This document shows positions 17,304 through 42,094 of a stretch of DNA of 64,000 nt, piece by piece. The notes beneath the pieces are model-generated. The model had not been told where the DNA came from and ran no database searches. It was given only the letters and a program-made list of their open reading frames with translations. Made by a program: the position numbers and the translations under genes. Positions within the stretch are counted from its first letter, which is position 1, and every line of letters starts with the position of its first letter. Source of the stretch: Parcubacteria bacterium C7867-005 (lineage in GTDB: Bacteria; Patescibacteriota; Minisyncoccia; Phycocordibacterales; Zambryskibacteraceae); the NCBI GenBank assembly GCA_001189165.1, contig LFCO01000001.1, positions 156,848 through 220,847 on the forward strand, given 5' to 3'.

Positions 17304-17305
17304 AT

Positions 17306-17333
17306 TTGTATTATAGCAAATCCATCATATAAT
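17306..17333 (+). promoter_or_regulatory. sigma70-like promoter TTGTAT-16-TATAAT for small ORF 17362..17490
   Basis: -35 TTGTAT 17306-17311, -10 TATAAT 17328-17333 read directly in the sequence. Confidence 0.55.
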
Positions 17334-17361
17334 TTCTTTACCCTTACCCTGGAGGATTTGG

Positions 17362-17490
17362 ATGGCCGCGAAGAAGAGAAAGCCCTCGTATCGTTCGAGC
17401 AGGACTCGAAGCAGGAGTCAGCGGGGACGGTCGGGTGGCAAGCAGAGGCCGGCAAGTAGCCGCTGTCGCTGCTGTGGTCACTGCCTCTAG
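17362..17490 (+). CDS. 42-aa Arg/Ser-rich basic peptide with C-terminal CRCCGHC cysteine cluster (GC-rich cassette 1)
   Basis: GGAGG (17351-17355) 6 nt upstream of ATG; codon-by-codon translation MAAKKRKPSYRSSRTRSRSQRGRSGGKQRPASSRCRCCGHCL, TAG at 17488; GC-rich island in AT-rich context; not in ORF track (<60 aa). Confidence 0.5.
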   Translation: MAAKKRKPSYRSSRTRSRSQRGRSGGKQRPASSRCRCCGHCL

Positions 17491-17526
17491 GTAGAGGCCG
17501 GGCGATAAGTTCGCCCGAACATGTTC

Positions 17527-17554
17527 GCGCCGGAACGATGTTCCGGCGCTTTTG
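17527..17554 (+). terminator. rho-independent terminator (10-bp perfect stem GCGCCGGAAC/GTTCCGGCGC, loop GAT, then TTTTG)
   Basis: Stem arms 17527-17536 and 17540-17549 are exact reverse complements; T-run follows. Confidence 0.8.
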
Positions 17555-17585
17555 ATACCAAAAAATATTTTGCTACCATAGTGTT

Positions 17586-18920: not shown

Positions 18921-19340
18921 ATGAAGAAGCGTACGCTGGTCTCGTTCGGCATCACCACGGTCGTCATCTTGCTCGCCCTCACTGTCACTCAGACGCTCTG
19001 GAGGGACGTCGACTACAAGATTGAGATCGGCTCGATCATCTCTTTCGAGGATTCGTGGGGAGCAAGCGCGGGAACTATGGGTGAGAATTGTCTCGCCCCA
19101 AGCTTCGGCCGGGCGCGTGTCGTGGCAGTAGACGGCGCTTGGGTCACCCTCGAGGATGCCGGCGCGTACTACTGGTCCTGGACCAACACGCCTGGGTGTG
19201 ACAGGTTCCAAAGAACTCGCCACTGGGTGAGAAAGAACATCATGAACAAGGCCGCGATCGAAGCAAGGGCAGCCAAGCACGACAGCCACTTACAAGAAAC
19301 GAACCTGGCTGACTATCTTGCAGATCAAGAACGCCAGTAA
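18921..19340 (+). CDS. GC-rich small signal-anchored protein (cassette 2, 139 aa)
   Basis: GGAAGG 5 nt upstream of ATG 18921; MKKRTLVSFGITTVVILLALTVTQ signal/TM; strong GC3 bias in this frame; own terminator at 19370. Confidence 0.6.
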   Translation: MKKRTLVSFGITTVVILLALTVTQTLWRDVDYKIEIGSIISFEDSWGASAGTMGENCLAPSFGRARVVAVDGAWVTLEDAGAYYWSWTNTPGCDRFQRTRHWVRKNIMNKAAIEARAAKHDSHLQETNLADYLADQERQ

Positions 19341-19516: not shown

Positions 19517-19855
19517 ATGATAGTGAAAGAGGAAGTTCGTACGGACATGGTGATCGAGTGCACCACGGATGACACTGGGAGATGGCACTTCAGGAAGGCT
19601 GGTGAGGAGGTCGAGGTGACCTTCTGCTCTGGCGCAATCGTCTTCGTCGAAGGTATTCCCGAAGAATCCAAGAAGAGGTTCGCGGTTCGTTCGGACAGGC
19701 CCAGGGCCACCGTCGAAGTTCGTGGTGACAAGATCAGCTTCGCCTTCGGCAGGCAGACAAGGGCACCGTACATCCCCACCCGTGAGAAACACCGCGTGAT
19801 GATCACCGTGAGGTCCGTCCCCCACAAGGGACACAAGGAACGCCAAACCGCCTGA
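19517..19855 (+). CDS. GC-rich hypothetical protein (cassette 3, 112 aa)
   Basis: GAGG upstream of ATG 19517; MIVKEEVRTDMVIECTTDD...; promoter and terminator flank it; the two antisense ORFs were rejected (no signals). Confidence 0.55.
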   Translation: MIVKEEVRTDMVIECTTDDTGRWHFRKAGEEVEVTFCSGAIVFVEGIPEESKKRFAVRSDRPRATVEVRGDKISFAFGRQTRAPYIPTREKHRVMITVRSVPHKGHKERQTA

Positions 19856-22397: not shown

Positions 22398-22709
22398 ATG
22401 GCGGCCAAGAAGAAGCCCATGAACGACGCGCGGAAGTCCGAAGTACTGATCAAGATCCTGAAGTCCATCCTTCTCGCGCAGTTGGAAGAGGAGGGTGATA
22501 ACCTGGCTGATGAAGCCACCAAGAAGATGGCTGAGCTGATCGTCGATGTGTCAGAACTAGCCGGCATCTCCTATGAGGATCTCATCGAGGTGGGGCGCCC
22601 TGTGTGCCACGACCTACTCGATGAACTCATCAGTAACGCGATGGAGATCCTCGGGGATCAGAAGGCCGAGAAGGCCACAGGGTCGACGGGCACGCAAGAA
22701 GGCCGGTGA
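22398..22709 (+). CDS. GC-rich acidic hypothetical protein (cassette 4, 103 aa)
   Basis: GAGGG upstream of ATG 22398; MAAKKKPMNDARKSEVLIKILKSILLAQLEEEGDN...; very high GC3; terminator at 22719. Confidence 0.55.
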   Translation: MAAKKKPMNDARKSEVLIKILKSILLAQLEEEGDNLADEATKKMAELIVDVSELAGISYEDLIEVGRPVCHDLLDELISNAMEILGDQKAEKATGSTGTQEGR

Positions 22710-25007: not shown

Positions 25008-25385
25008 ATGCAGTATTCTGATCTCCCGAAAGCGACATTCATCGGCGTAGCCTCGAATGCCCTCGACCTCTCTTTCCTGCTCGAGGAAGCAATGATTGGG
25101 ACATGGGGACCATTCCTCTACTGCGATCGAGCCCGCGGTGGTCCGAACTCTTGCCGAATCCTCAGTCAGGTGGCGACGGAGTACACAGAGACCGCCCCAC
25201 TTGTGCGGGCGATGGGCTGTACAAGCATGGCCATCGATCTCTTTCGAAAGGATTCCTTCTCGAAAGCGCGATTCGATCCAGCAACACCTCCAGCCCAAGG
25301 CGCAGTCAAGAGTTGGGAGGTGAGCCTCGCTAGCGCTACCGCCCATCACTTAGTGATCGTTAAGGCGGTATGGCGCCTTCCTTGA
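25008..25385 (+). CDS. GC-rich hypothetical protein (cassette 5, 125 aa)
   Basis: GGAG 9 nt upstream of ATG 25008; MQYSDLPKATFIGVASNALDLSFLLEEAMIGTWGPFLYCDRARGG...; strong terminator immediately after stop. Confidence 0.5.
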   Translation: MQYSDLPKATFIGVASNALDLSFLLEEAMIGTWGPFLYCDRARGGPNSCRILSQVATEYTETAPLVRAMGCTSMAIDLFRKDSFSKARFDPATPPAQGAVKSWEVSLASATAHHLVIVKAVWRLP

Positions 25386-26443: not shown

Positions 26444-27706
26444 CTAGATTCGAAAACCGCTTGATCGTAGTTTCCTGTGGTAAGTGATAGCGAACCGGTG
26501 CGCCTCAGAATTTGCAAGGAGGATCGACCTCCCCCATTTCTCTATTTTGCCCTTCTCTCCGATTATTTCTCTTGCTTTATGCTTTTCGTCTTTGACCACA
26601 GAGACGATTTCTATATTGAATCCTCTTTCTTTCAATTCTTCTTTAGCTGCATTTATCTGTGCAGTACTGCCATCAACCACGATGAGTTGTGGCAAATTCC
26701 ACTCCGCATGGCCGAGTCTCCTGCGGATCACTTCCCTTAGATTCTTCGTATCATCAACACCGACCCTGCCACCGACGCCTTTGATTTTGAATTTCCTGTA
26801 CTGACTCTTTTGCAGTTCATCATCCTCTACCACTACCATCACACCGACTGTATCAGACCCAGAGATATGGGCGATGTCATATGCCTCTATTCTAAACACA
26901 TTCTCATCATAAACCCGAGTTGAATCTCTCTTTATCAGAGCGACATCCTGAATATGGTCGAGCGAGTAGAGCGTTCTCTTGATCTTCTCTGCATCTTCAA
27001 ACCTCTCTTCTTTGGCGCAAAGCTTCATCTCTTTCTCTAATTCTTTGATCAAAGTTGTCTTTTCTCCATTGAAAAATAGTTCGAGGTGTTTGATTCTCTT
27101 TCTGTATTCTCTTTTGGATATGGCACCCGAGCAAACCCCGGGGCATAGACCGATTTGAGAGTTAAAGCATGGCTTTATTTTCGCTCCCATTTTCAATTCT
27201 TCTTTAGGAATACACTTGTCCCTGTATGGAAATAATTTACGAATAATTTTTAAAGCTTCTCGGAGCTCCCCACTGCTGGGGAAGGGTCCGAAGACTGATT
27301 TGATCTTATAATTCTTCGCAGTTTGCTCGAAGTGTTCTATGTTCCTAGAACGGATCACTAATACACGAGGGTAATCTTCGAGGGTGACGATAACTGAATT
27401 AAAACTCTTGTTGTCCTTCTCTATGGTGTTGTATGGGGGTAAGTGTTTTTTGATCTGGCCCGCTTCGAGCATCAGTGCTTCGAGGACGGATTGGGTTTCG
27501 GTGAACCTTATACTCGTCGCTCCTTCGACCATCTTCACTAACCTCGGTCCACGGGTTTTGATCAAATCCTTTGAAAAGTAGCTTTTGACCCTATCTTTCA
27601 AACTAGTGGCTTTGCCTATATAAAGTATTTCTTTTTTGGATCCAAGGAAAAAATACACACCTGGTGTGTCTGGGAGTTTGGCTTTCTGTAGTGCTTGACT
27701 ATTCAT
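26444..27706 (-). CDS. uvrC: excinuclease ABC subunit C (short form, no C-terminal HhH)
   Basis: GIY-YIG N-terminus PGVYFFLGSKKEILYIGKATSLKDRVKSYF, UvrBC-interacting and RNase-H-like endonuclease regions. Confidence 0.88.
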   Translation of the reverse strand: MNSQALQKAKLPDTPGVYFFLGSKKEILYIGKATSLKDRVKSYFSKDLIKTRGPRLVKMVEGATSIRFTETQSVLEALMLEAGQIKKHLPPYNTIEKDNKSFNSVIVTLEDYPRVLVIRSRNIEHFEQTAKNYKIKSVFGPFPSSGELREALKIIRKLFPYRDKCIPKEELKMGAKIKPCFNSQIGLCPGVCSGAISKREYRKRIKHLELFFNGEKTTLIKELEKEMKLCAKEERFEDAEKIKRTLYSLDHIQDVALIKRDSTRVYDENVFRIEAYDIAHISGSDTVGVMVVVEDDELQKSQYRKFKIKGVGGRVGVDDTKNLREVIRRRLGHAEWNLPQLIVVDGSTAQINAAKEELKERGFNIEIVSVVKDEKHKAREIIGEKGKIEKWGRSILLANSEAHRFAITYHRKLRSSGFRI

Positions 27707-27752
27707 ACAAATATGATACTATATTTTCAGGACCCGCACAAAGGAGAGGTAC

Positions 27753-27941
27753 ATGAAGCAAAGGACGTTAGCCGAAGACGCAACGAGTGGTAAGCCCAGG
27801 CTCGACACCATGACCCGAAGGAGAGCGGAAGCTGCACTTGATCGTGAGATCAGAACAGCATACTCCAACAAGCTTTCGGGCCACCCGACCTGGACACCCA
27901 TCAACTACCACGATGGTCGCGGTACGCCAGTGAGGCCCTAA
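27753..27941 (+). CDS. GC-rich small basic protein (cassette 6, 62 aa)
   Basis: AGGAGAGG 3 nt upstream of ATG 27753; MKQRTLAEDATSGKPRLDTMTRRRAEAALDREIRTAYSNKL...; terminator overlaps the uvrA stop. Confidence 0.5.
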   Translation: MKQRTLAEDATSGKPRLDTMTRRRAEAALDREIRTAYSNKLSGHPTWTPINYHDGRGTPVRP

Positions 27942-27942
27942 G

Positions 27943-27985
27943 GGAGTAGCAGAAATGCTACTCCTTCTTCCTTTTATTTTTCTTC
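27943..27985 (+). terminator. rho-independent terminator (9-bp stem GGAGTAGCA/TGCTACTCC, GAAA loop, then TTCTTCCTTTTATTTTTCTTC)
   Basis: Arms 27943-27951/27956-27964; the uvrA stop codon (27958-27960) lies in the 3' arm. Confidence 0.8.
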
Positions 27986-30615
27986 AAAATTTTTCTTAAA
28001 TATGTTCCGGTGTGTGTATCAGTATTTGCCACCTCCTCTGGTGTTCCCTTGGCTACCAATTTTCCACCACCGTCTCCACCTTCAGGACCGATGTCCAAAA
28101 CATAATCCGCACTTTTGACAAGATCGAGGTTATGCTCGATCACCACCACAGTGTTTCCTTTGTCTACTAATTTTTGCAAAATTTCTATAAGTTTCTTTAC
28201 ATCCTCATAATGTAGACCTATCGTGGGCTCATCCAAGATATACATAGTTTTTTGTACATGAGGACGATAGAGCTCTGAGGAGATCTTCACTCTCTGTGCT
28301 TCTCCACCTGAAAGAGTCGTAGCTGACTGCCCGAGCTTCAGATAACCCAGACCCACATCACTCATGGATTTTAATCTGTCATAGATTGCGGGGATGTCCT
28401 CAAAGAATCTGAGGGCTTCTTCTACTGTCATCTCCAACACTTGGAAGATATTTTTCTTTTTGTATTCGACTTCAAGGGTTTCTTTCATAAACCTCTTACC
28501 ACGACACACGTCACATGGTACATAGACAGTTGGGAGGAAATGCATCTCTACTTCGATCATCCCATTACCCTGACAAGTTTCGCACCTTCCCCCCTTTACA
28601 TTGAATGAGAATCTGTTTGCTTTCCAACCACGTGCACGTGCTTCGGATGATTCTGCAAAAAGGTCACGAATAAAAGTGAATGCCCCCGTATAGGTGGCTG
28701 GGTTTGAGCGTGGTGTACGACCAATCGGAGACTGGTCGATGAGTATCGCTCGACCGATGTATTCACTACCCGCAAAGGACTGTGCATTGTGTGTTTCTGC
28801 ACTCCTGTATCTACGATCGAGTCTGGCCTGAAGATTTTTATAAAGGATTTCGTAGATGAAAGAAGATTTACCCGATCCAGAGACGCCGGTGACAGCGACT
28901 AATCGTCCGAGAGGGATATCTACATTCAAATGTTTGATATTGAATATCTTCCCCGCGCGAATTTGAATACTGCCTTTTTCTGAGGATCTCCTTTCTTCTG
29001 GCACAGATATTTCACTCTCCTCTCGAAGATATGAGAGTGTCAGAGATTTTGAATCATTCTTCTTCGCGGTCAAAAGTGGCTCGAGGTAATCAGCGACGAC
29101 GACGTGTCCGCCGTGTATACCTGCTCCAGGACCAATATCTACGATATAATCCGAAGAATAAATTGTATCTTCGTCGTGCTCGACGATGAGAATGGTGTTA
29201 CCCAGATCACGCAAGTCGAGGAGGGTTTTGATCAATCTGTCATTATCCCTCGAGTGTAGACCGATAGTGGGTTCGTCGAGCACGTAGAGTGCCCCCACGA
29301 GCCCAGAACCAAGCTGGGAAGCGAGTCTAATACGCTGTGCTTCTCCACCTGAAAGTGTGTGGGCTCGTCTGTCCAGGGTCAAATAATCGATACCCACGTT
29401 TAACATGAATTCGAGTCTGGAAGCGATCTCTTTGATCACCACTCTGGAGATATTTTTCTCCCTGATGGTTAGTTTGATTTTCTTGAAAAACTCATCTGCC
29501 TCTTTGATCGATTGTGCTACAACTTCTACGATATTTTTTCCGCCAACCAAAACATGCAGAGCTTCTTCACGTAGTCGTTTTCCTTTACATTTTGGACATG
29601 GTGTACTGCCAAAAAGATATTTGGTACCTAAACCATTACACTCTGGACACGCGCCGTATGGAGAGTTAAACGAAAATAATCTAGGCTCTATCTCGGGGAA
29701 AGAAAAACCATCTTTCGGGCAAGCCCACTTTGCTGACATGAGAAACTCTTCTGATGTTTCTACGGGTTTTTTACCATCCACAGACATATCTCTAAAACGA
29801 ACCACTAGTAACCCGTCTGATTCATGGATAGATTTCTCTATAGACTCGGATAAGCGTTCGTTCGCAGTCTTTTCATCACTCTTGAATTCATTCAGACTGA
29901 TTGAATCCACTAATACACTGATGTTGTGTGCCTTCGTTTTGGTCAGCACAATCCTCTCTCGGAGTTTCTTGCGCTCACCGTCTACCAAAACTTCTGTGTA
30001 CCCCTTGCCCAAGAGATCATAGAGTAGTTGATAGTATTCACCCTTCCTGCCACGGACGATTGGCGAGAAGATCTCTACATAGATTGGTAAATTTATTTTC
30101 TTCCCATTTGTCTGTGGATTTTTTTCTGCTTTTTCATTGATTTTATCCAGTACAAAATTTTTGATCTCTTCGTTTGAAAGTTTTTTGATCTCTGTCCCAC
30201 AAACCAAACAATGCGGTCTGCCTACTCGGGCAAACAAAATACGAAGATAATCATAGATCTCAGTGATAGTGGCCACTGTAGAGCGAGGGTTATTCGAACG
30301 TGAGGTCTGATCGATAGAGATAGCCGGAGACAAACCGACTATTTCATCTACATCTGGTTTCTGCATCTGCTTTAAAAACTGTCTTGCATATGAAGAAAGA
30401 GATTCTACATATCTACGCTGACCTTCGGCAAAAATCGTGTCGAATGCCAAAGAGGATTTACCTGAGCCAGAAAGTCCGGTGAAAACGATCATTTTGCCAC
30501 GAGGCATCTCCACAGTGATGTTCTTCAGGTTGTGGGTACGCGCACCACGGACAATGATTATATCTTGGTTTGGTTGTTTTTTGTCTTTGGACATACAAAG
30601 ATGGCCCCGGGACAT
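27958..30615 (-). CDS. uvrA: excinuclease ABC subunit A
   Basis: 885 aa, two ABC ATPase modules ([16 protein letters not shown]; [15 protein letters not shown]), zinc-finger cysteines, [15 protein letters not shown] start. Confidence 0.95.
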
Positions 30616-30660
30616 GCCCTAGGGGTTAGATACGAACAAACTATATCATAAAAACCTGAT

Positions 30661-30689
30661 TTGACTATATGGTGGTTTTTATTTATGGT
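30661..30689 (+). promoter_or_regulatory. sigma70-like promoter TTGACT-17-TATGGT for cassette 7
   Basis: -35 30661-30666, -10 30684-30689. Confidence 0.55.
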
Positions 30690-30738
30690 AGTGAGAGGCC
30701 CCCGATGTACATCTGTCCACACATTCCGGAGACAGCGC

Positions 30739-31107
30739 ATGCAGCAACGTACGACCGACGCCGTGGAGCCCACCCAAGTTCGGAGTCAGACCCCCTGCCA
30801 CAGGACCACGATCAGGCTCGATGAGGTGGACACTGACCGCCTCACGAGAATGCTAGGCCACGAATTCCCTGACCCGAGGGTCCAGATCGCAAGCGCGTTC
30901 AACACCGACATCTCCGAGATCAGCGACGAACTCCTCGATCGGATCAACGCGGTGACCAACCACGTCGAGGCTCTCGGTCTCTTCGGAGTTCTGCGCAGGC
31001 ACTACTACGGCGAGAATGACATCAACGCCGTCGTGCGGTGTGTCGCCTGCTTCTGTCGGAAGCCCGCGCCAGAGCCCGCGACTGCTTCGGCCCCCATGGT
31101 GCACTAG
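30739..31107 (+). CDS. GC-rich hypothetical protein (cassette 7, 122 aa)
   Basis: GGAG upstream of ATG 30739; MQQRTTDAVEPTQVRSQTPCHRTTIRLDEVDTDRL...VVRCVACFCRKPAPEPATASAPMVH; terminator at 31129. Confidence 0.5.
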   Translation: MQQRTTDAVEPTQVRSQTPCHRTTIRLDEVDTDRLTRMLGHEFPDPRVQIASAFNTDISEISDELLDRINAVTNHVEALGLFGVLRRHYYGENDINAVVRCVACFCRKPAPEPATASAPMVH

Positions 31108-31128
31108 ACGAACGTCTACCACCTCCAC

Positions 31129-31160
31129 CTCCGCCCTCACAGGCGGAGTCTTATTTTTTA
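31129..31160 (+). terminator. rho-independent terminator (CTCCGCC/GGCGGAG stem, loop CTCACA, then TCTTATTTTTTATC)
   Basis: 7-bp arms 31129-31135/31142-31148; T-run overlaps the uvrB stop. Confidence 0.7.
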
Positions 31161-33214
31161 TCTTCTTTATCCAGTCGCTTTTCTAAGAGTCTGATCTCAT
31201 CTCGGATTATAGCTGCTGTCTCAAAGTCGAGATCTCTCACTGCGATTTCCATTTCTTCTCTTTTGGCTTTGATAAATTTCTTTGGATTTTTGTCGAAAAT
31301 CAACTCATCTGTTTCTAATAAAACATTTACAGCGTTGTGGTGCTCACGCTCAAGAGTGTCAGTGATGTCTTTGATTTTTTTCTTGATAGTGATCGGGGTG
31401 ATGCCGTGCTTTTTGTTATAAGCCATCTGTATCTCCCTTCTTCTTTTTGTCTCCCCCATCGCCCTCTCCATCGAGCCGGTGACTGTGTCTGCGTACAAAA
31501 TAACCTTACCTTCTACATTCCTCGCAGCACGACCAATAATCTGGATAAGGGAAGTCTCTGAGCGTAGGAAGCCCTCTTTGTCCGCATCGAGGATACCAAT
31601 AAAAGTAACCTCGGGTAAATCGAGTCCTTCTCGAAGCAAATTTACACCAACCAAACAATCAAAAACCCCTTTACGGAAATCTGTGAGGATCTCTATACGC
31701 TCGATGGTCTTGATCTCACTATGTAGATACCTCGCTTTGATTTTCTTTTCCTTTAGAAATTCGGATAAATCTTCTGCCATCTTCTTGGTGAGGGTGGTAG
31801 CGATCACCCGACCACCCTTTTTAATCGCTTTCTCAGTCTCATTTATAAAATCACTGATCTGTCCATCATAGTTTCCCTTACTCTGTATTGGTCGCACGGT
31901 CACTTCTGGATCGATGAGTCCTGTGGGCCTGATCACTTGCTCGACTACTTTCTTACTGTTTGCTTTCTCATAGACACTTGGTGTAGCTGAAGTGAAGATC
32001 ACCTGACCAATCCGCTTTTCAAATTCATCGAACATGAGTGGTCTATTGTCTTTGGCTGACGGGAGTCTGAATCCATGCTCAACCAATGTTTCTTTCCTTG
32101 ATCTGTCACCGGCAAACATCCCACCGATCTGAGGAATCGTGACGTGGGATTCATCTATGATCGTGAGGAAGTCTGCACTACCGTCTTTCTTGTGGGGGAA
32201 ATACGAGAGCAGTGTGTCTGGTGCCTCACCAACTTTTTTGCCAGAGAAATGCCTGGAATAATTTTCTATGCCGTTGCAGTAACCGACCTCACGAATGAGT
32301 GCGAGGTCGTATGATGTTCTCCTTTTTAATCTATCTGCTTCCAAAATTTTTCCGTCTTTTTTAAATTGTTCTAGCTGTTTGTCTAGCTCCAGCTTGATAC
32401 TCTGTATAGCCTTTTTCACCTGCTCTTCATCGGTGATGAAATGCTTTGCGGGGAAAAGATAGAAAACTTCTGGTTCACTGATCACCGTCCTCGACACTCC
32501 GTCTATACGCTTTATCGCGGAGATATGGCTGTCTTCTATCTCTATCCTATATATAGTCTTCTCTCCTGTGGGCATGATTTCTACTGCATTGCCGAGTGCT
32601 CTAAATGTTCCTGATTTGATATCCGAATTCGTACGAGAGAAATGGATATCGATCAGTTCTCTGATAAAATCCGCACGAGAGATCTTGTCTCCTTTAGAGA
32701 TTTTCATATTCACCTTCTCATATTCTTCTGGTGAACCTAAACCGTATATACAAGATACAGAGGCGACGATGATTACATCCTTTCTGGTTAAAAGAGCCTG
32801 GGTTGAAGCGTGCCTCAGCCTCTCGATCTCTTCGTTGATCATAGCTTCTTTTTCTATATAAGTATCCGTCACCGGCATATATGCTTCGGGCTGATAATAA
32901 TCGTAGTAAGAAACGAAGTAATGAACCGCATTGTCTGGGAAGAATTCTCTGTACTCTTGGGCGAGTTGTGCGGCCAGGGTTTTATTGTGAGCGATGACCA
33001 GAGTAGGTTTACCTATCTGCTCTATGACATTTGCGGCTGTGAAGGTTTTACCCGATCCGGTGACACCTAGGAGGGTTTGTTTGTCCAATCCATCTTTAAT
33101 ACCGGAGACGAGCTCCTTGATAGCTTTGGGCTGATCCCCCGCTGGTTTAAATTCATTTCTGATCTTAAAAACTGACATTTGTCGAATTATACTTTTTTCA
33201 AACCCCAAAAACAA
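31151..33214 (-). CDS. uvrB: excinuclease ABC subunit B
   Basis: FKPAGDQPKAIKELVSG, helicase motifs, C-terminal UVR domain. Likely real start MSVFKI at 33178, with TATAAT (33186-33191) 7 nt upstream and no SD, so possibly leaderless. Confidence 0.93.
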   Translation of the reverse strand: MFLGFEKSIIRQMSVFKIRNEFKPAGDQPKAIKELVSGIKDGLDKQTLLGVTGSGKTFTAANVIEQIGKPTLVIAHNKTLAAQLAQEYREFFPDNAVHYFVSYYDYYQPEAYMPVTDTYIEKEAMINEEIERLRHASTQALLTRKDVIIVASVSCIYGLGSPEEYEKVNMKISKGDKISRADFIRELIDIHFSRTNSDIKSGTFRALGNAVEIMPTGEKTIYRIEIEDSHISAIKRIDGVSRTVISEPEVFYLFPAKHFITDEEQVKKAIQSIKLELDKQLEQFKKDGKILEADRLKRRTSYDLALIREVGYCNGIENYSRHFSGKKVGEAPDTLLSYFPHKKDGSADFLTIIDESHVTIPQIGGMFAGDRSRKETLVEHGFRLPSAKDNRPLMFDEFEKRIGQVIFTSATPSVYEKANSKKVVEQVIRPTGLIDPEVTVRPIQSKGNYDGQISDFINETEKAIKKGGRVIATTLTKKMAEDLSEFLKEKKIKARYLHSEIKTIERIEILTDFRKGVFDCLVGVNLLREGLDLPEVTFIGILDADKEGFLRSETSLIQIIGRAARNVEGKVILYADTVTGSMERAMGETKRRREIQMAYNKKHGITPITIKKKIKDITDTLEREHHNAVNVLLETDELIFDKNPKKFIKAKREEMEIAVRDLDFETAAIIRDEIRLLEKRLDKEDKK

Positions 33215-33224
33215 AGATCCCAGG

Positions 33225-33494
33225 CTACAAAGTAGCCTGGGGTGATTCGGGCGAACCCTTGAAGTTGAGTTCGAGAACCATCGTCTTGTGGCCGATGGGC
33301 TTCTGCTCGCCCCCCTCTCGCTTCACGGCCTCGCGCTCTTCGTAGCACTCATTGCATACGTGAGCGTTCCGAGTGCTTGGGGTGAGGAGACCCCAGATCT
33401 GGTGAGTCGCGCGTTCCTTCTTGCAGTCCTCGCAAGGAATGGGGAAATATCCCCTGAGATGATTGAGGACGTTCGGGATCACAGGAGCAGGCAC
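33225..33494 (-). CDS. GC-rich zinc-ribbon protein (cassette 8, 89 aa, GTG start)
   Basis: GGAGG 4 nt upstream of GTG 33494; CEDCKKERATHQ...17 aa...CNECYEE (two CxxC); GC3 higher on this strand than on the overlapping plus ORF; 10-bp hairpin CCCAGGCTAC/GTAGCCTGGG (33219-33241) plus T-tract downstream on the minus strand. Confidence 0.5.
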   Translation of the reverse strand: MPAPVIPNVLNHLRGYFPIPCEDCKKERATHQIWGLLTPSTRNAHVCNECYEEREAVKREGGEQKPIGHKTMVLELNFKGSPESPQATL

Positions 33495-33533
33495 GGGACC
33501 TCCGTTGGGCGTGGATGGGAGCGGTCTTTGTAG

Positions 33534-33562
33534 AAAATATAACTATTTCAAATACTTTGCAA
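33534..33562 (-). promoter_or_regulatory. sigma70-like promoter TTGCAA-17-TATTTT (minus strand) for cassette 8
   Basis: -35 at 33557-33562 and -10 at 33534-33539 on the minus strand; overlaps the tgt stop codon. Confidence 0.45.
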
Positions 33563-34748
33563 GGAAATCTGTCTTGAGTTTTTCAAAATTATCATCCAGA
33601 ATCGCTTGGCGCATTCGCTTCACGAGGTTAGTGATGAAATACAAATTATGTATAGAACCCAATGTTGACGCGAGCATTTCCTTGGATCTATACAGGTGTG
33701 AGAGGTAGCCGAGCGAATAATCTTTACATGTTGAACATCCACAGCGTGGATCGATCGGCCCCTCTGCCTCTACGAATTGTGCATTGCCGATATTTATTTT
33801 ACCTTCTTCCGTATACAGAGTTCCCCCACGAGCGCGTCGTGTTGGTGCTACACAGTCAAAGAGGTCTACACCATTCTCTACACCCATGAAGAGATCTTCT
33901 GGCTCGCCTATACCGAGCAAGTGTCTAGGTTTATCTTTGGGCAAGACACCATTCACCCAGAGTACTGCGGTACTCATATCTTCTTTGGCAAAAGATCCGC
34001 CAATACCAAATCCATCAAAATCCATTCTACCGATAAATTCTGCAGACCTTTTGCGCAAATTCTCCTCTCGTCCACCTTGGACAATTCCAAATAATGCCTG
34101 AGACTCTGAATTGATTTTTGATTTGTGATATTCCAAACTTTTTTTGGCCCACCTATGTGTACGATCTAAAGCTTCTTCTTGATAAGCAACAGTCTCTGAT
34201 GGTGAGGTGCATTCATCAAAAGCAAATATAATATCCGCACCGAGGTTATGTTGAATCTCTACAGATTTCTCTGGGGTGATGTAGTGAAGTGACCCATCAA
34301 GATGAGAGCGAAAAGAAACTCCATCGGACCCTATAGTGGCTAGCCTGGGTGCTTCATGATCCATCGATCGCTCTGATATCAGTCTGGATGGATCAGTGAT
34401 AGAGATAACTTTGTTCAAGTTTTTGCCGTAGGCAGCACCGAGGGAGAAAACCTGGAATCCACCCGAGTCAGTCATGATCGGACCAAACCAGTTCATGAAT
34501 TTGTGTAGACCTCCAAATTTTTTTACCCTCTCATCCCCCGGTTGTAGATATAGATGGTAAGTATTTGCTAATACTACATCTGCGCCAGTATTCTTTACAT
34601 CATCAGTACTCAAAGCTTTGACTGTGGCCTTGGTACCCACGGTCACAAACGCTGGGGTGGGTATCACTCCGTGAGGCGTCTCCAAAGTACCTGCACGACC
34701 AAGCTTGCCTTGGAGCTCTTTTATTATGCTGAATTTGATCGGCTTCAT
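33543..34748 (-). CDS. tgt: queuine tRNA-ribosyltransferase
   Basis: TPHGVIPTPAFVTVGTKATVK, VLANTYHLYLQPG, GPIMTDSGGFQVFSL, C-terminal CxCxxC zinc site. Confidence 0.92.
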   Translation of the reverse strand: MKPIKFSIIKELQGKLGRAGTLETPHGVIPTPAFVTVGTKATVKALSTDDVKNTGADVVLANTYHLYLQPGDERVKKFGGLHKFMNWFGPIMTDSGGFQVFSLGAAYGKNLNKVISITDPSRLISERSMDHEAPRLATIGSDGVSFRSHLDGSLHYITPEKSVEIQHNLGADIIFAFDECTSPSETVAYQEEALDRTHRWAKKSLEYHKSKINSESQALFGIVQGGREENLRKRSAEFIGRMDFDGFGIGGSFAKEDMSTAVLWVNGVLPKDKPRHLLGIGEPEDLFMGVENGVDLFDCVAPTRRARGGTLYTEEGKINIGNAQFVEAEGPIDPRCGCSTCKDYSLGYLSHLYRSKEMLASTLGSIHNLYFITNLVKRMRQAILDDNFEKLKTDFLAKYLK

Positions 34749-34787
34749 CGGTACACAATAGCAAATGAAGTTTAAATATAAAATTTA

Positions 34788-34816
34788 TTGACCTAACTCT
34801 AGGATAAAGATATAAA
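34788..34816 (+). promoter_or_regulatory. sigma70-like promoter TTGACC-17-TATAAA for cassette 9
   Basis: -35 34788-34793, -10 34811-34816. Confidence 0.55.
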
Positions 34817-34851
34817 TATGAAGGAACAGATTTCTCACGCCGAGGTATACC

Positions 34852-35070
34852 ATGGGCAGCACAGCAATAGATCGCATGTTCCAAGGCAAGTCGGTCAGAG
34901 AGTTGATTGCCATTGGCACAGAGGAGTCTCGCAAGGAAGCACAGCGCCTGATGGAGATCGAAGCTGACTGCATGGGTATACGCAACCACTACCTATGGGG
35001 CCTGTTTTCCGGACAGAGCAAGCTCCGTGGCCTACAAGACGATGAAGCAGTCACCAAACCCCCGAAGTAA
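34852..35070 (+). CDS. GC-rich hypothetical protein (cassette 9, 72 aa)
   Basis: GAGG upstream of ATG 34852; MGSTAIDRMFQGKSVRELIAIGTEESRKEAQRLMEIEADCMG...; stop codon sits in the loop of the terminator. Confidence 0.5.
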   Translation: MGSTAIDRMFQGKSVRELIAIGTEESRKEAQRLMEIEADCMGIRNHYLWGLFSGQSKLRGLQDDEAVTKPPK

Positions 35071-35095
35071 GTTCGGGGGTCTCTTATTATCTCTT
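35058..35095 (+). terminator. rho-independent terminator (9-bp stem ACCCCCGAA/TTCGGGGGT, loop GTAAG, then CTCTTATTATCTCTT)
   Basis: Arms 35058-35066/35072-35080; overlaps the mreB stop (35087-35089). Confidence 0.75.
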
Positions 35096-36103
35096 GGCGA
35101 TTATAGATTTTTTATAAACATCCAAATGATCTAGAGCGACGCCAGTCCCTTTGGCCACACAAAAGATAGCTTCTTTGGCAAGCTGGGCCTTAACACCTGT
35201 TCGCCTAAAAACAAGTTCAGGTAAATGTCGGAGTTGGGAAGATCCACCGGTCATAATTATTCCTCGGTCTATAATATCTGAAGAAAGTTCTGGAGGGGTT
35301 TCTTGGAGTACATCTTTGATCGCTTTGACCATCTCTCGGAGTTCTTTGCTTATCGCTTTAGTGATCTCATTAGTTTTAATTTCCACTGTACGAGGAAGGC
35401 CCAGGATAAAATCCCTACCTTTCACCGACATGGTGAGCTCTTCGTCCATAGGTACAGCAGATCCAACTTTAATTTTTATATCTTCTGCGGTCTTATCACC
35501 GATAGCGAGGTTGTATGTTTTCTTTATATAGTCTGCTATAGCAGCGTCTATCTTGTTCCCCGCCACCTTAACCGAAGTAGATGCGACGATGCCGCCAAGG
35601 GATATGACAGCGACATCAGTAGTACCACCGCCTATATCTACAATCATGTGCCCCGCTGCCTCTTGGATGGGTATACCCGCACCAATAGCAGCAAGTATTG
35701 GTTCCTTAACCACATAGGCATTTTTTGCACCAGCCTTTATCGCCGCCTCCACAACTGCACGACGCTCAGTGGAAGTAACCCCCGCAGGCACAGAGATCAA
35801 CACATCAGGTTTAAAAATGTTCCACTTGCCCATCGCTTTGTTTATGTAGTAGCGGAGCATTGCCTCAGTCACTCTATAATCAGCAATCACCCCATCCTTC
35901 ATAGGTCTATAAGCGATGATGTTCTCAGGTGTACGACCTATCATGGTCTTAGCCTCTGCTCCTATGGCCAAAATTTTGTTGTCATCTTCTGATACAGCAA
36001 CCACTGAAGGCTCGTTTAGGACAATGCCTATTCCAGGTACAAAGACCAAAATGTTGGTTGTGCCCAAATCTATACCGAGTTTCCTCACTCCAAAGAATTT
36101 CAT
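35087..36103 (-). CDS. mreB: rod shape-determining protein MreB
   Basis: LGIDLGTTNILVFV..., DIGGGTTDVAVISLGG, IIMTGGSSQLRHL actin-fold motifs. Confidence 0.95.
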   Translation of the reverse strand: MKFFGVRKLGIDLGTTNILVFVPGIGIVLNEPSVVAVSEDDNKILAIGAEAKTMIGRTPENIIAYRPMKDGVIADYRVTEAMLRYYINKAMGKWNIFKPDVLISVPAGVTSTERRAVVEAAIKAGAKNAYVVKEPILAAIGAGIPIQEAAGHMIVDIGGGTTDVAVISLGGIVASTSVKVAGNKIDAAIADYIKKTYNLAIGDKTAEDIKIKVGSAVPMDEELTMSVKGRDFILGLPRTVEIKTNEITKAISKELREMVKAIKDVLQETPPELSSDIIDRGIIMTGGSSQLRHLPELVFRRTGVKAQLAKEAIFCVAKGTGVALDHLDVYKKSIIAKR

Positions 36104-36184
36104 ATTTCTATAATACTGTTTAAGGTCTAATTTACAAACAAAGGAAAAACGGGTATTTCATGACCCCTAAGATATAATGTCCTT

Positions 36185-41836: not shown

Positions 41837-42094
41837 TCACTTCGGGACCTTCTCCCCCGCCGAGCCGGTGTCGACCGGAGGCTTCACCGGAGCACCGACC
41901 CCAGCACCTGCGTCGGGGTTCTTCGGAGGCCTGGGCGCGACCCTGTGCGGGATGGAGAACGACCCCGTCACACCCTTGTCCTTCTTGCTCGAGCGCCTCA
42001 CCAGGTAGACACCCAGGATGATGAGCCCGAGGACGACCGAGGTAACGATCTTGTGCTGGGAAAGCAGTGACAGCAGTTCGTCCATCGACGGCAT
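41837..42094 (-). CDS. GC-rich small membrane protein with Pro/Gly/Ala-rich tail (cassette 10, 85 aa)
   Basis: GGAGGG 4 nt upstream of ATG 42094 (minus); MPSMDELLSLLSQHKIVTSVVLGLIILGVYLV TM; very high GC3 on this strand; bulged 9-bp hairpin plus T-run downstream (about 41775-41822); the overlapping plus ORF was rejected. Confidence 0.5.
   Translation of the reverse strand: MPSMDELLSLLSQHKIVTSVVLGLIILGVYLVRRSSKKDKGVTGSFSIPHRVAPRPPKNPDAGAGVGAPVKPPVDTGSAGEKVPK

Follow-up and report, generated by a model that had tools for sequence, protein, structure and literature searches.

A probable class of resident small GC-rich genes between uvrC, uvrA, uvrB, tgt and mreB of Parcubacteria bacterium C7867-005

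We analysed a 64,000-nucleotide (nt) stretch of the genome of Parcubacteria bacterium C7867-005 (contig LFCO01000001.1; the window, to which all coordinates refer unless stated), in which the housekeeping genes uvrC, uvrA, uvrB, tgt and mreB are separated by four gaps, each occupied by one small GC-rich transcription unit. These units, here called cassettes, are denoted c27 (uvrC/uvrA gap), c30 (uvrA/uvrB), c33 (uvrB/tgt) and c34 (tgt/mreB). The source genome of 0.56 Mb and 42% GC was assembled from a groundwater metagenome at Hanford (PMC4508563). The explanation that we favour, and consider probable, is that the four elements are autonomous resident small protein genes, lodged between separately promoted housekeeping genes, and that they belong to a lineage-wide class of fast-evolving, GC-rich genes led by a Shine-Dalgarno (SD) sequence. 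What can be read directly from the DNA in this explanation is the architecture, the coding signature, the homology by position, the difference in rate and the composition. By this account c27, c30 and c34 would have occupied the same gaps since before related Parcubacteria diverged and would not be recent foreign insertions; c33 would be a gain specific to the C7867-005 lineage.

The gaps measure 251, 535, 364 and 338 nt in the order given above, with a GC content of 0.53, 0.58, 0.54 and 0.47 (host coding sequence, 0.42) and a maximum over 100-nt windows of 0.57-0.68. An earlier note on this DNA had reported one GC-rich cassette per gap, and within the window this is borne out: each gap contains a promoter, a leader, an SD, a single open reading frame (ORF) and a strong hairpin followed by a T-run. 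The promoters follow the pattern TTGAC(A/T/C)-N16-17-TAnnnT within an AT-rich stretch, and the leaders of 25-50 nt are C/A-rich, G-poor and end in a GGAGG-type SD. The ORFs have a GC content of 54-62% (host 42%) and a third-position GC content (GC3) of 0.62-0.80 (host 0.44). The predicted features are as follows; lengths of proteins are in amino acids (aa).

27695..27722, plus strand: c27 promoter, TTGACT-N16-TACTAT, with the -35 hexamer formed by uvrC codons 3-4
27753..27941, plus strand: c27 ORF, 62 aa, GC 0.57, GC3 0.62, with a C/A-rich leader and an AGGAG SD
27941..27976, plus strand: c27 intrinsic terminator, whose stem GGAGTAGC/GCTACTCC includes the last uvrA codon and stop
30661..30689, plus strand: c30 promoter, TTGACT-N17-TATGGT
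30739..31107, plus strand: c30 ORF, 122 aa, GC 0.62, GC3 0.80
31129..31158, plus strand: c30 terminator, with the uvrB stop TAA (31151-31153) in its T-tail
33534..33562, minus strand: c33 promoter, -35 TTGCAA in the last tgt codons and -10 TATTTT just past the tgt stop
33225..33494, minus strand: c33 ORF, 89 aa, GTG start, GC 0.58, GC3 0.71, zinc-ribbon-like (CxxC...CxxC)
33209..33241, minus strand: c33 terminator, with the c33 stop codon within the hairpin
34788..34816, plus strand: c34 promoter, TTGACC-N17-TATAAA
34852..35070, plus strand: c34 ORF, 72 aa, GC 0.54, GC3 0.63
35058..35090, plus strand: c34 terminator, with the c34 stop in the loop and the mreB stop TAA (35087-35089) in the T-tail

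This anatomy is far beyond chance. In a consensus scan of 24.5-36.5 kb, the top five terminator-like sites were those of c33, c25 (a cassette outside the four gaps), c34, c30 and c27, and 21 such sites were observed compared with 9.4 ± 3.5 in shuffled sequences. The units are closely packed against their neighbours. The -10 of c27 (27717-27722) overlaps that of uvrC (27723-27718) on the opposite strand, the c30 and uvrA promoters (the latter at 30667-30640, minus strand) stand back-to-back with overlapping -35 hexamers (30661-30666 and 30667-30662), and the c34 and tgt promoters also form a back-to-back pair. The c33 promoter holds the position that the uvrB promoter has in relatives with an empty tgt/uvrB gap. 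At the other end, the earlier description of terminators overlapping host stop codons proved correct: the uvrA TAG (27958-60) lies inside the 3' arm of the c27 stem (27941-27966), and the uvrB and mreB stops lie in the c30 and c34 T-tails. Likewise, one cassette had been said to end just upstream of the uvrB promoter region, and indeed the c33 T-tail doubles as the uvrB -35 (33214-33209), whose -10 (33191-33186) is 7 nt ahead of the ATG. Each unit would start at a sigma70-type promoter placed back-to-back with a neighbouring housekeeping promoter, or sharing its hexamers, and would end in a strong hairpin packed against a convergent housekeeping stop or the promoter of the next gene. We infer from this layout that the units are transcribed and translated as drawn. 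The host genes at all four gaps align over their full length with those of relatives, and none is disrupted, as had been claimed.

The ORFs carry the signature of coding sequence. In the promoter-to-terminator frame of c30, c33 and c34, GC3 exceeds GC at the first position, which exceeds that at the second, and the opposite-strand ORFs of the same units have the mirror-image pattern; the stored gene calls picked the opposite-strand ORF for c30 and c33. Between two relatives (loci L083 and L087), the nonsynonymous divergence (dN) of the c30 family is 0.32, compared with 0.008-0.066 in the flanking genes, its ratio to synonymous divergence (dN/dS) is ~0.12, and the proportion of differing synonymous sites (pS) is 0.73, against 0.39-0.52 in the flanks. 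Between the window and L083, the corresponding nonsynonymous proportion (pN) is 0.46 for both c30 and c34 and 0.05-0.16 for the flanking genes. Class members evolve 3-9 times faster than their neighbours. Judged by these substitution patterns, the gap genes are real proteins under purifying selection that change several-fold faster than the genes around them.

As to the proteins themselves, Pfam, PHROGs, PADLOC and NCBIfam gave zero matches above curated cut-offs for all cassettes, with no defence or phage family among them, and weak zinc-finger matches of c33 were the sole family hint. The predicted structure of c30 is a five-helix bundle with a predicted local distance difference test score (pLDDT) of 76 and with Cys/His motifs at the N- and C-terminus (PC(H/C)R...CFCR); a structural search with this model was without match. 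The c34 family has a core, ELIA(I/M)GT..S...A....SEADC, conserved across four species. The four products may be accessory or regulatory small proteins, two of them zinc-binding in appearance. Paralogy among the cassettes was rejected on comparison.

Positional homologues were sought in 80 species-level relatives drawn from GTDB (loci numbered with the prefix L) and in protein collections. A HMMER scan of 1.84 billion representatives yielded one credible homologue of c30, P0010 (107 aa, 38% identity); two other matches covered a stretch of 26-29 residues only, in long repeat proteins. P0010 and c30 have the motifs PC(H/C)R, EVDT.RL and VACFCR.PA in common, and the gene for P0010 lies in the uvrA/uvrB gap with the orientation of c30, in contigs L082, L083 and L086 and in the sister species L087. 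Homologues of c34 were found in the mreB/tgt gap, again in the same orientation, in L003 and in the contigs with the c30 homologue (L083 and L087 by name), and in these two they are preceded by TTGAC(C/G)-N17-TATAAAT. A link of the c30 family to other uvrB/uvrA gap ORFs (108 aa in L003, 109 aa in L004) was considered and rejected, there being no profile link. For c27 it is the regulatory shell that is conserved: the -35 (TTGACT) from uvrC codons 3-4 is kept clade-wide, and the stretch from promoter through leader to MKQ start has 79% identity to L007 (56/71), 70% to L002 and 68% to L004. L007 has an identical terminator stem, GGAGTAGCA/TGCTACTCC, and the ORF body has 47% identity to L007, which is the random level. 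A small gene is present in the uvrC/uvrA gap of every clade-i relative examined (L002-L009, L011, L083), and similarity of c27 to the EGPSGL family of this gap was not significant, either in frame or in the other two frames. Thus the same-gap homologues of c30 and c34, together with the c27 shell, indicate that three of the four are not new arrivals. The c33 gene looks lineage-specific. A word-indexed search with c30, c34 and c33 returned only the proteins themselves, and IMG/VR scans with c25 and c18, two cassettes outside the four gaps, gave no relatives. In L007, the identical c27 stem is not adjacent to uvrA; the arrangement suggests that compaction may have fused the end of uvrA (GAG TAG, 27958-27966) to the c27 terminator.

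The occupancy of the gaps varies among relatives. Each of the same gaps has from 0 to 3 small genes, which for the most part are not related from one genome to the next, and the promoter-SD-ORF-terminator design recurs in either orientation; the one-per-gap regularity of the earlier description is thus a feature of the window and does not extend to the relatives. In L002, L005 and L007-L011, mreB runs directly into tgt, with -7 to +2 nt between the stop of the former and the start of the latter, and the tgt/uvrB gap is only 7-23 nt long in L002, L003, L010 and L083. Because these alleles are exactly empty, presence or absence of c33 and c34 represents true indel polymorphism that spares host genes. 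The uvrA/uvrB gap of relatives is mixed as to extra DNA. In a neighbour-joining tree of Tgt and UvrB, the window groups with L002 (99.5% bootstrap) and then with L003 (96%), while L083 and L087 are basal in the clade. All contigs of this strain, including one from a second sample (L090), are 100% identical, with zero polymorphism. Among the relatives' own gap genes are small membrane peptides and zinc ribbons. One conserved small zinc-ribbon gene (…C.YC…H.GH…) lies in the uvrB/uvrA gap of L002, L003, L004, L007 and L011 and is missing from the window; between L007 and L011 its dN/dS is 0.07 and its pS 0.31, compared with 0.6-0.7 in the flanks. By eye, the small proteins in the tgt/uvrB gap of L006 and L048, from two different clades, resemble Xis/HTH_17 excisionases, and a GC-rich gene in the uvrC/ddl gap of L048 and L051 resembles adenylate kinase.

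The composition of the cassettes is a puzzle in its own right. Relative to the closest relative, the flanking genes have a pS of 0.75-0.87, so synonymous sites are saturated and a neutral, vertically inherited gene would be expected at host GC3. Nevertheless, c27, c30 and c34 retain the high GC3 given above, and their homologues in L083 have GC3 of 0.52-0.58 (host ~0.38) and GC of 0.54-0.55 (host 0.40-0.45). Across 36 stringently defined cassettes, GC3 lies ~0.16-0.19 above that of AT-rich hosts and is about level with that of GC-rich hosts (slope 0.57). The GC-rich tract runs from the predicted transcription start to the terminator, with no enrichment in the adjoining ends of host genes, and no recent recombination tracts were found in the flanking genes among the sampled genomes, DNA identity being 55-83% throughout. 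Given the saturated flanks, the GC excess is not a timestamp of horizontal gene transfer (HGT) and would be a maintained or renewed property of the class; since the positional homologues are mostly GC-rich too, composition marks the class and not a recent transfer. An equation of GC-rich with foreign is thus contradicted by the same-gap, mostly GC-rich homologues of c30 and c34 (L083, L086, L087, L003) and by the c27 shell in L007. We suppose that the GC-rich composition is actively maintained, candidate causes being selection on SD-led mRNAs, GC-biased conversion, or replacement of ORF bodies within their shells from a pool of ~55-60% GC.

The cassettes also differ from host genes in their expression signals. 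All ten GC-rich cassettes in the window have an SD, compared with 3 of 47 host genes (Fisher p = 7e-9). Conversely, 18 of 43 host genes have a TAnWWT hexamer whose end lies 4-12 nt ahead of the start codon, while control offsets give 4-7 of 43; this indicates widespread leaderless host mRNAs, and none of the cassettes is arranged in this way. The -10 boxes of uvrB, uvrC and mreB are 6-11 nt 5' of the ATG, and host examples lie at 33186-33191 (uvrB), 36110-36137 (mreB) and 17304-17320. No rRNA sequence for a check of the 16S anti-SD was present in any C7867-005 or relatives' locus examined. In third positions, cassettes have C at 0.39 and G at 0.33, compared with 0.21 and 0.20 in the host; they use AAG in 90% (host 35%) and ATC in 82% (host 38%) of cases, and their amino-acid usage is skewed to A, R, T and P. 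A speculative extension, about which we are doubtful, is that two dialects coexist in this genome, one of AT-rich, SD-less and often leaderless housekeeping genes and the other of small, SD-led, GC-rich and fast genes whose composition outlasts synonymous turnover through a process limited to the transcribed unit. The dialects might be held apart by GC-biased gene conversion where loci are prone to recombination, by alleles being replaced repeatedly in promoter/terminator shells, or by selection tied to separate translation initiation.

Six further members of the class lie in the window, at 17.3-25.4 kb and 41.8-42.1 kb:

~17340-17580, 18921-19340, 19517-19855, 22398-22709, 25008-25385 and 41837-42094: GC-rich, SD-led, terminator-ended genes

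The five longer ORFs among them gave no family match, the ~17.3-kb peptide lying outside that search, and four are present in the protein collection as clusters of one or two sequences. The ~17.3-kb unit would encode just an Arg-rich peptide of 32 aa, with ~100 nt of GC-rich sequence after it. Cassettes are absent from 0-17 kb, from 42.2-64 kb and from the 10 kb preceding the window on its left, and three more lie immediately to its right, beside a UvrD-like gene. A 33-nt palindrome, CCCCCGTGTCAACCTG(G/C)CAGGTTGACACGGGGG, occurs in three copies in the same genome (L089 4847-4869, 5506-5528 and 8954-8976), 0.4-5 kb past the right end of the window; two of the copies bracket a 122-aa GC-rich cassette and the third is in the leader of another. 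It was not found in the window or in IMG/VR and may be an element like the repetitive extragenic palindromes (REP) or an operator.

Several observations weigh against residence by descent as the explanation of all four genes. The orthology of c27 is based on its regulatory shell, its protein being unalignable to the gap family, and c33 has no homologue in any search. The c30 and c34 families are patchy, being present in the window and in basal lineages and absent from the best-supported sister L002; this requires either that exact losses occurred repeatedly or that the genes were laterally re-acquired at the same site. The GC excess is without a demonstrated cause and should vanish under simple vertical neutral evolution. 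Moreover, promoters, leaders and leaderless status are all predictions from sequence, and the family and structure searches give no function for any of the four proteins.

The patchiness of c30 and c34 is the main argument for a rival explanation in which promoter-leader and terminator descend vertically and the ORF bodies within these fixed shells are swapped, by short-homology recombination, from a pool of ~55-60% GC among Zambryskibacteria-like lineages, in the manner of the shuffling at promoter early stem-loops (PeSL) in T4-type phages. We think this unlikely. It would fit the confinement of the GC-rich tract between transcription start and terminator with unenriched flank ends, the c27 shell kept with L007 around an ORF body at the random level, the unrelated ORFs behind the same uvrC-embedded TTGACT promoter in L004, L005, L006 and L009, the regression of cassette GC3 to ~0.6 whatever the host GC3, and the pS of the c30 family above that of its flanks. 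However, no donor allele beyond the positional homologues was found in 5.8 billion or 1.84 billion proteins, the shells are just 25-60 nt long and differ between gaps, and at saturated divergence a weakly constrained ORF looks replaced anyway. The earlier note had itself favoured a targeted or selected mode of insertion, one cassette per gap. Extended to foreign cassettes recently acquired by HGT and placed through targeted or site-specific insertion, this reading is one that we consider improbable; for c27, c30 and c34 it is largely refuted. GC, codon usage and SD usage unlike those of the host, the c33 and c34 sites that are exactly empty in close relatives, an imperfect direct repeat of 18-26 nt around c33 and the 33-nt palindrome around one GC-rich cassette elsewhere in the genome all speak for it. 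Yet for three of the four, relatives with saturated flanks carry positional homologues or conserved shells, the c27 promoter is made of clade-conserved uvrC codons, relatives carry 0 to 3 genes per gap, and no phage or defence family was matched. The c33 repeat, a candidate target-site duplication, was rejected: its score of 13 is within the range of 6-13 for unrelated host promoters. A 16-nt imperfect repeat flanking c34 was judged to be chance, without a control. The alignment-based check for target-site duplications or conserved border motifs was negative, since the borders of c27, c30, c33 and c34 have no terminal inverted repeats, no target-site duplication and no shared motif, and Pfam shows neither an integrase nor a recombinase family within ±10 kb. 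What stands of the insertion reading is the exact gain or loss at gene junctions (c33, c34); foreign cassettes placed by a targeted mechanism do not. The observation that had been named as refuting it, the same small genes with host-like composition in the orthologous regions of relatives, was largely made, for c27, c30 and c34 and not for c33; the homologues found are mostly GC-rich.

Two further explanations concern the nature of the ORFs. They might be young, having arisen de novo from divergent transcripts of symmetric (bidirectional) host promoters and then become GC-rich and fast by a local GC-biased process. The opposite-strand -10 overlap of c27 and uvrC, the -35 overlap of c30 and uvrA, the orphan status of the proteins, and the long ORFs on both strands of the GC-rich tracts, where the stored annotation has the opposite-strand ORF at c30 and c33, are compatible with such an origin, but the Cys motifs and cores kept within families at dN/dS ~0.1, the zinc-ribbon pattern of c33 and the strong, consistent codon bias make it very improbable. 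It is also scarcely credible that the islands are structured non-coding RNAs with accidental ORFs, and this reading was rejected on Rfam and folding results. While GC-rich islands in an AT-rich genome are a classic signal of such RNAs and have ORFs on both strands, Rfam at gathering thresholds matched no cassette and found only two tRNAs across the whole window, and the folding z-scores of only -1.9 and -2.7 are mostly attributable to the terminators. Furthermore, an SD and a start codon stand behind each promoter, a stop is at or inside each terminator, and the codon-position GC pattern and protein-level conservation favour coding.

The resident small genes are set in a conserved backbone. 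Pfam identifies ddl, uvrC, uvrA, uvrB, tgt and mreB as consecutive minus-strand genes and priA as divergent from them, and the order fmt-def-priA / mreB-tgt-uvrB-uvrA-uvrC-ddl recurs in most of the 80 relatives, some of which have extra genes or rearrangements.

26444-27706, minus strand: uvrC (Pfam)
27958-30615, minus strand: uvrA (Pfam), true start probably at 30594
31151-33178, minus strand: uvrB (Pfam)
33543-34748, minus strand: tgt (Pfam)
35087-36103, minus strand: mreB (Pfam)
26444..36103, minus strand: uvrC-uvrA-uvrB-tgt-mreB backbone, conserved housekeeping genes without SD

UvrC has a length of only 420 aa (387 aa in L083), with GIY-YIG, UVR and RNase H-like endonuclease domains in Pfam, which did not find the C-terminal helix-hairpin-helix (HhH). 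A GC-rich palindrome, ggccccgggacatgccctagggg, lies at 30603-30625 between the uvrA promoter and the uvrA start. Since it is kept in L002-L010 and L083, it may be an operator or a hairpin of the leader; the annotated uvrA ATG (30615) falls in its loop.

If the pattern holds, deviant GC and codon usage would be unreliable as marks of recent HGT in ultra-small genomes, and composition-based island finding would wrongly flag an entire class of resident genes. Two modes of translation initiation, leaderless or SD-less and SD-led, would operate in one tiny genome, the SD-led mode coinciding with fast protein evolution. The SD-led class would then be a natural place to search for host-interaction or regulatory factors of episymbiotic bacteria of the candidate phyla radiation (CPR), and it offers a clean test case for local GC maintenance in bacteria, be it by selection, biased conversion or allele turnover.

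By analogy, the closest known systems are phage morons and PeSL-bracketed ORFans, although defining features of both fail here, as phage context and a repeated motif are both lacking. Morons of lambdoid phages (Cumby, Davidson & Maxwell 2012, PMC3594210) are, like the cassettes as predicted from sequence, single genes with their own promoter and terminator and with a GC content unlike that of their neighbours (here 0.54-0.62 against 0.42); c33 and c34 also resemble morons in lying between genes that are adjacent in related genomes, and for c30 the relatives give a mixed picture. Unlike morons, c27 occupies a gap that is never empty in the clade-i relatives examined, and the setting is a chromosomal housekeeping cluster of a CPR bacterium (uvrABC, tgt, mreB, ddl, priA) without PHROG matches. 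The GC difference is shared by most positional homologues, and all homologues that were found occupy the corresponding locus in relatives, which gives no indication of the spread between genomes that morons have. The ORFan cassettes of the hyperplastic regions of T4-type phages (Arbiol et al. 2010, PMC2839356; PMC4122927) are likewise small orphan genes lying between a sigma70-like promoter and a stem-loop terminator and interleaved with conserved core genes, their content varying while the regulatory brackets persist. In contrast to them, no repeat family is common to the cassette borders at 17-42.5 kb, where only the generic -35/-10 consensus recurs and every terminator is different, and the genome is cellular. 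Recombination between PeSL motifs is described as giving rise to indels, replacements and mini-circles.

Bidirectional (pseudo-symmetric) bacterial promoters are known to drive divergent transcripts (PMC10268837, PMC12825309). The -10 overlap of c27 and uvrC and the back-to-back pairs c30/uvrA and c34/tgt, with small genes divergent from housekeeping genes, recall them in sequence arrangement, but here the divergent partner is a conserved protein gene that has an SD, a terminator and a composition of its own. Unlike integron cassettes, which are promoterless ORFs with attC arrayed at intI/attI, the present ones have their own promoters and are dispersed singly; no integrase or recombinase family of Pfam is found within ±10 kb, no attC search with a dedicated model having been made. 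Transposable elements, including miniature inverted-repeat transposable elements (MITEs), have terminal inverted repeats and target-site duplications, whereas the cassettes lack the former and have imperfect flanking repeats at c33 and c34 only. Finally, hotspots of gene gain and loss between core genes have reportedly been described by Oliveira, Touchon and Rocha in Nat Commun in 2017. The gaps differ from such hotspots in being miniature, with one to three genes of 50-200 aa each, in being free of mobile-element genes and in having several occupants that are old positional homologues; they share with them a variable accessory content at fixed, core-flanked syntenic positions, with both empty and filled alleles.

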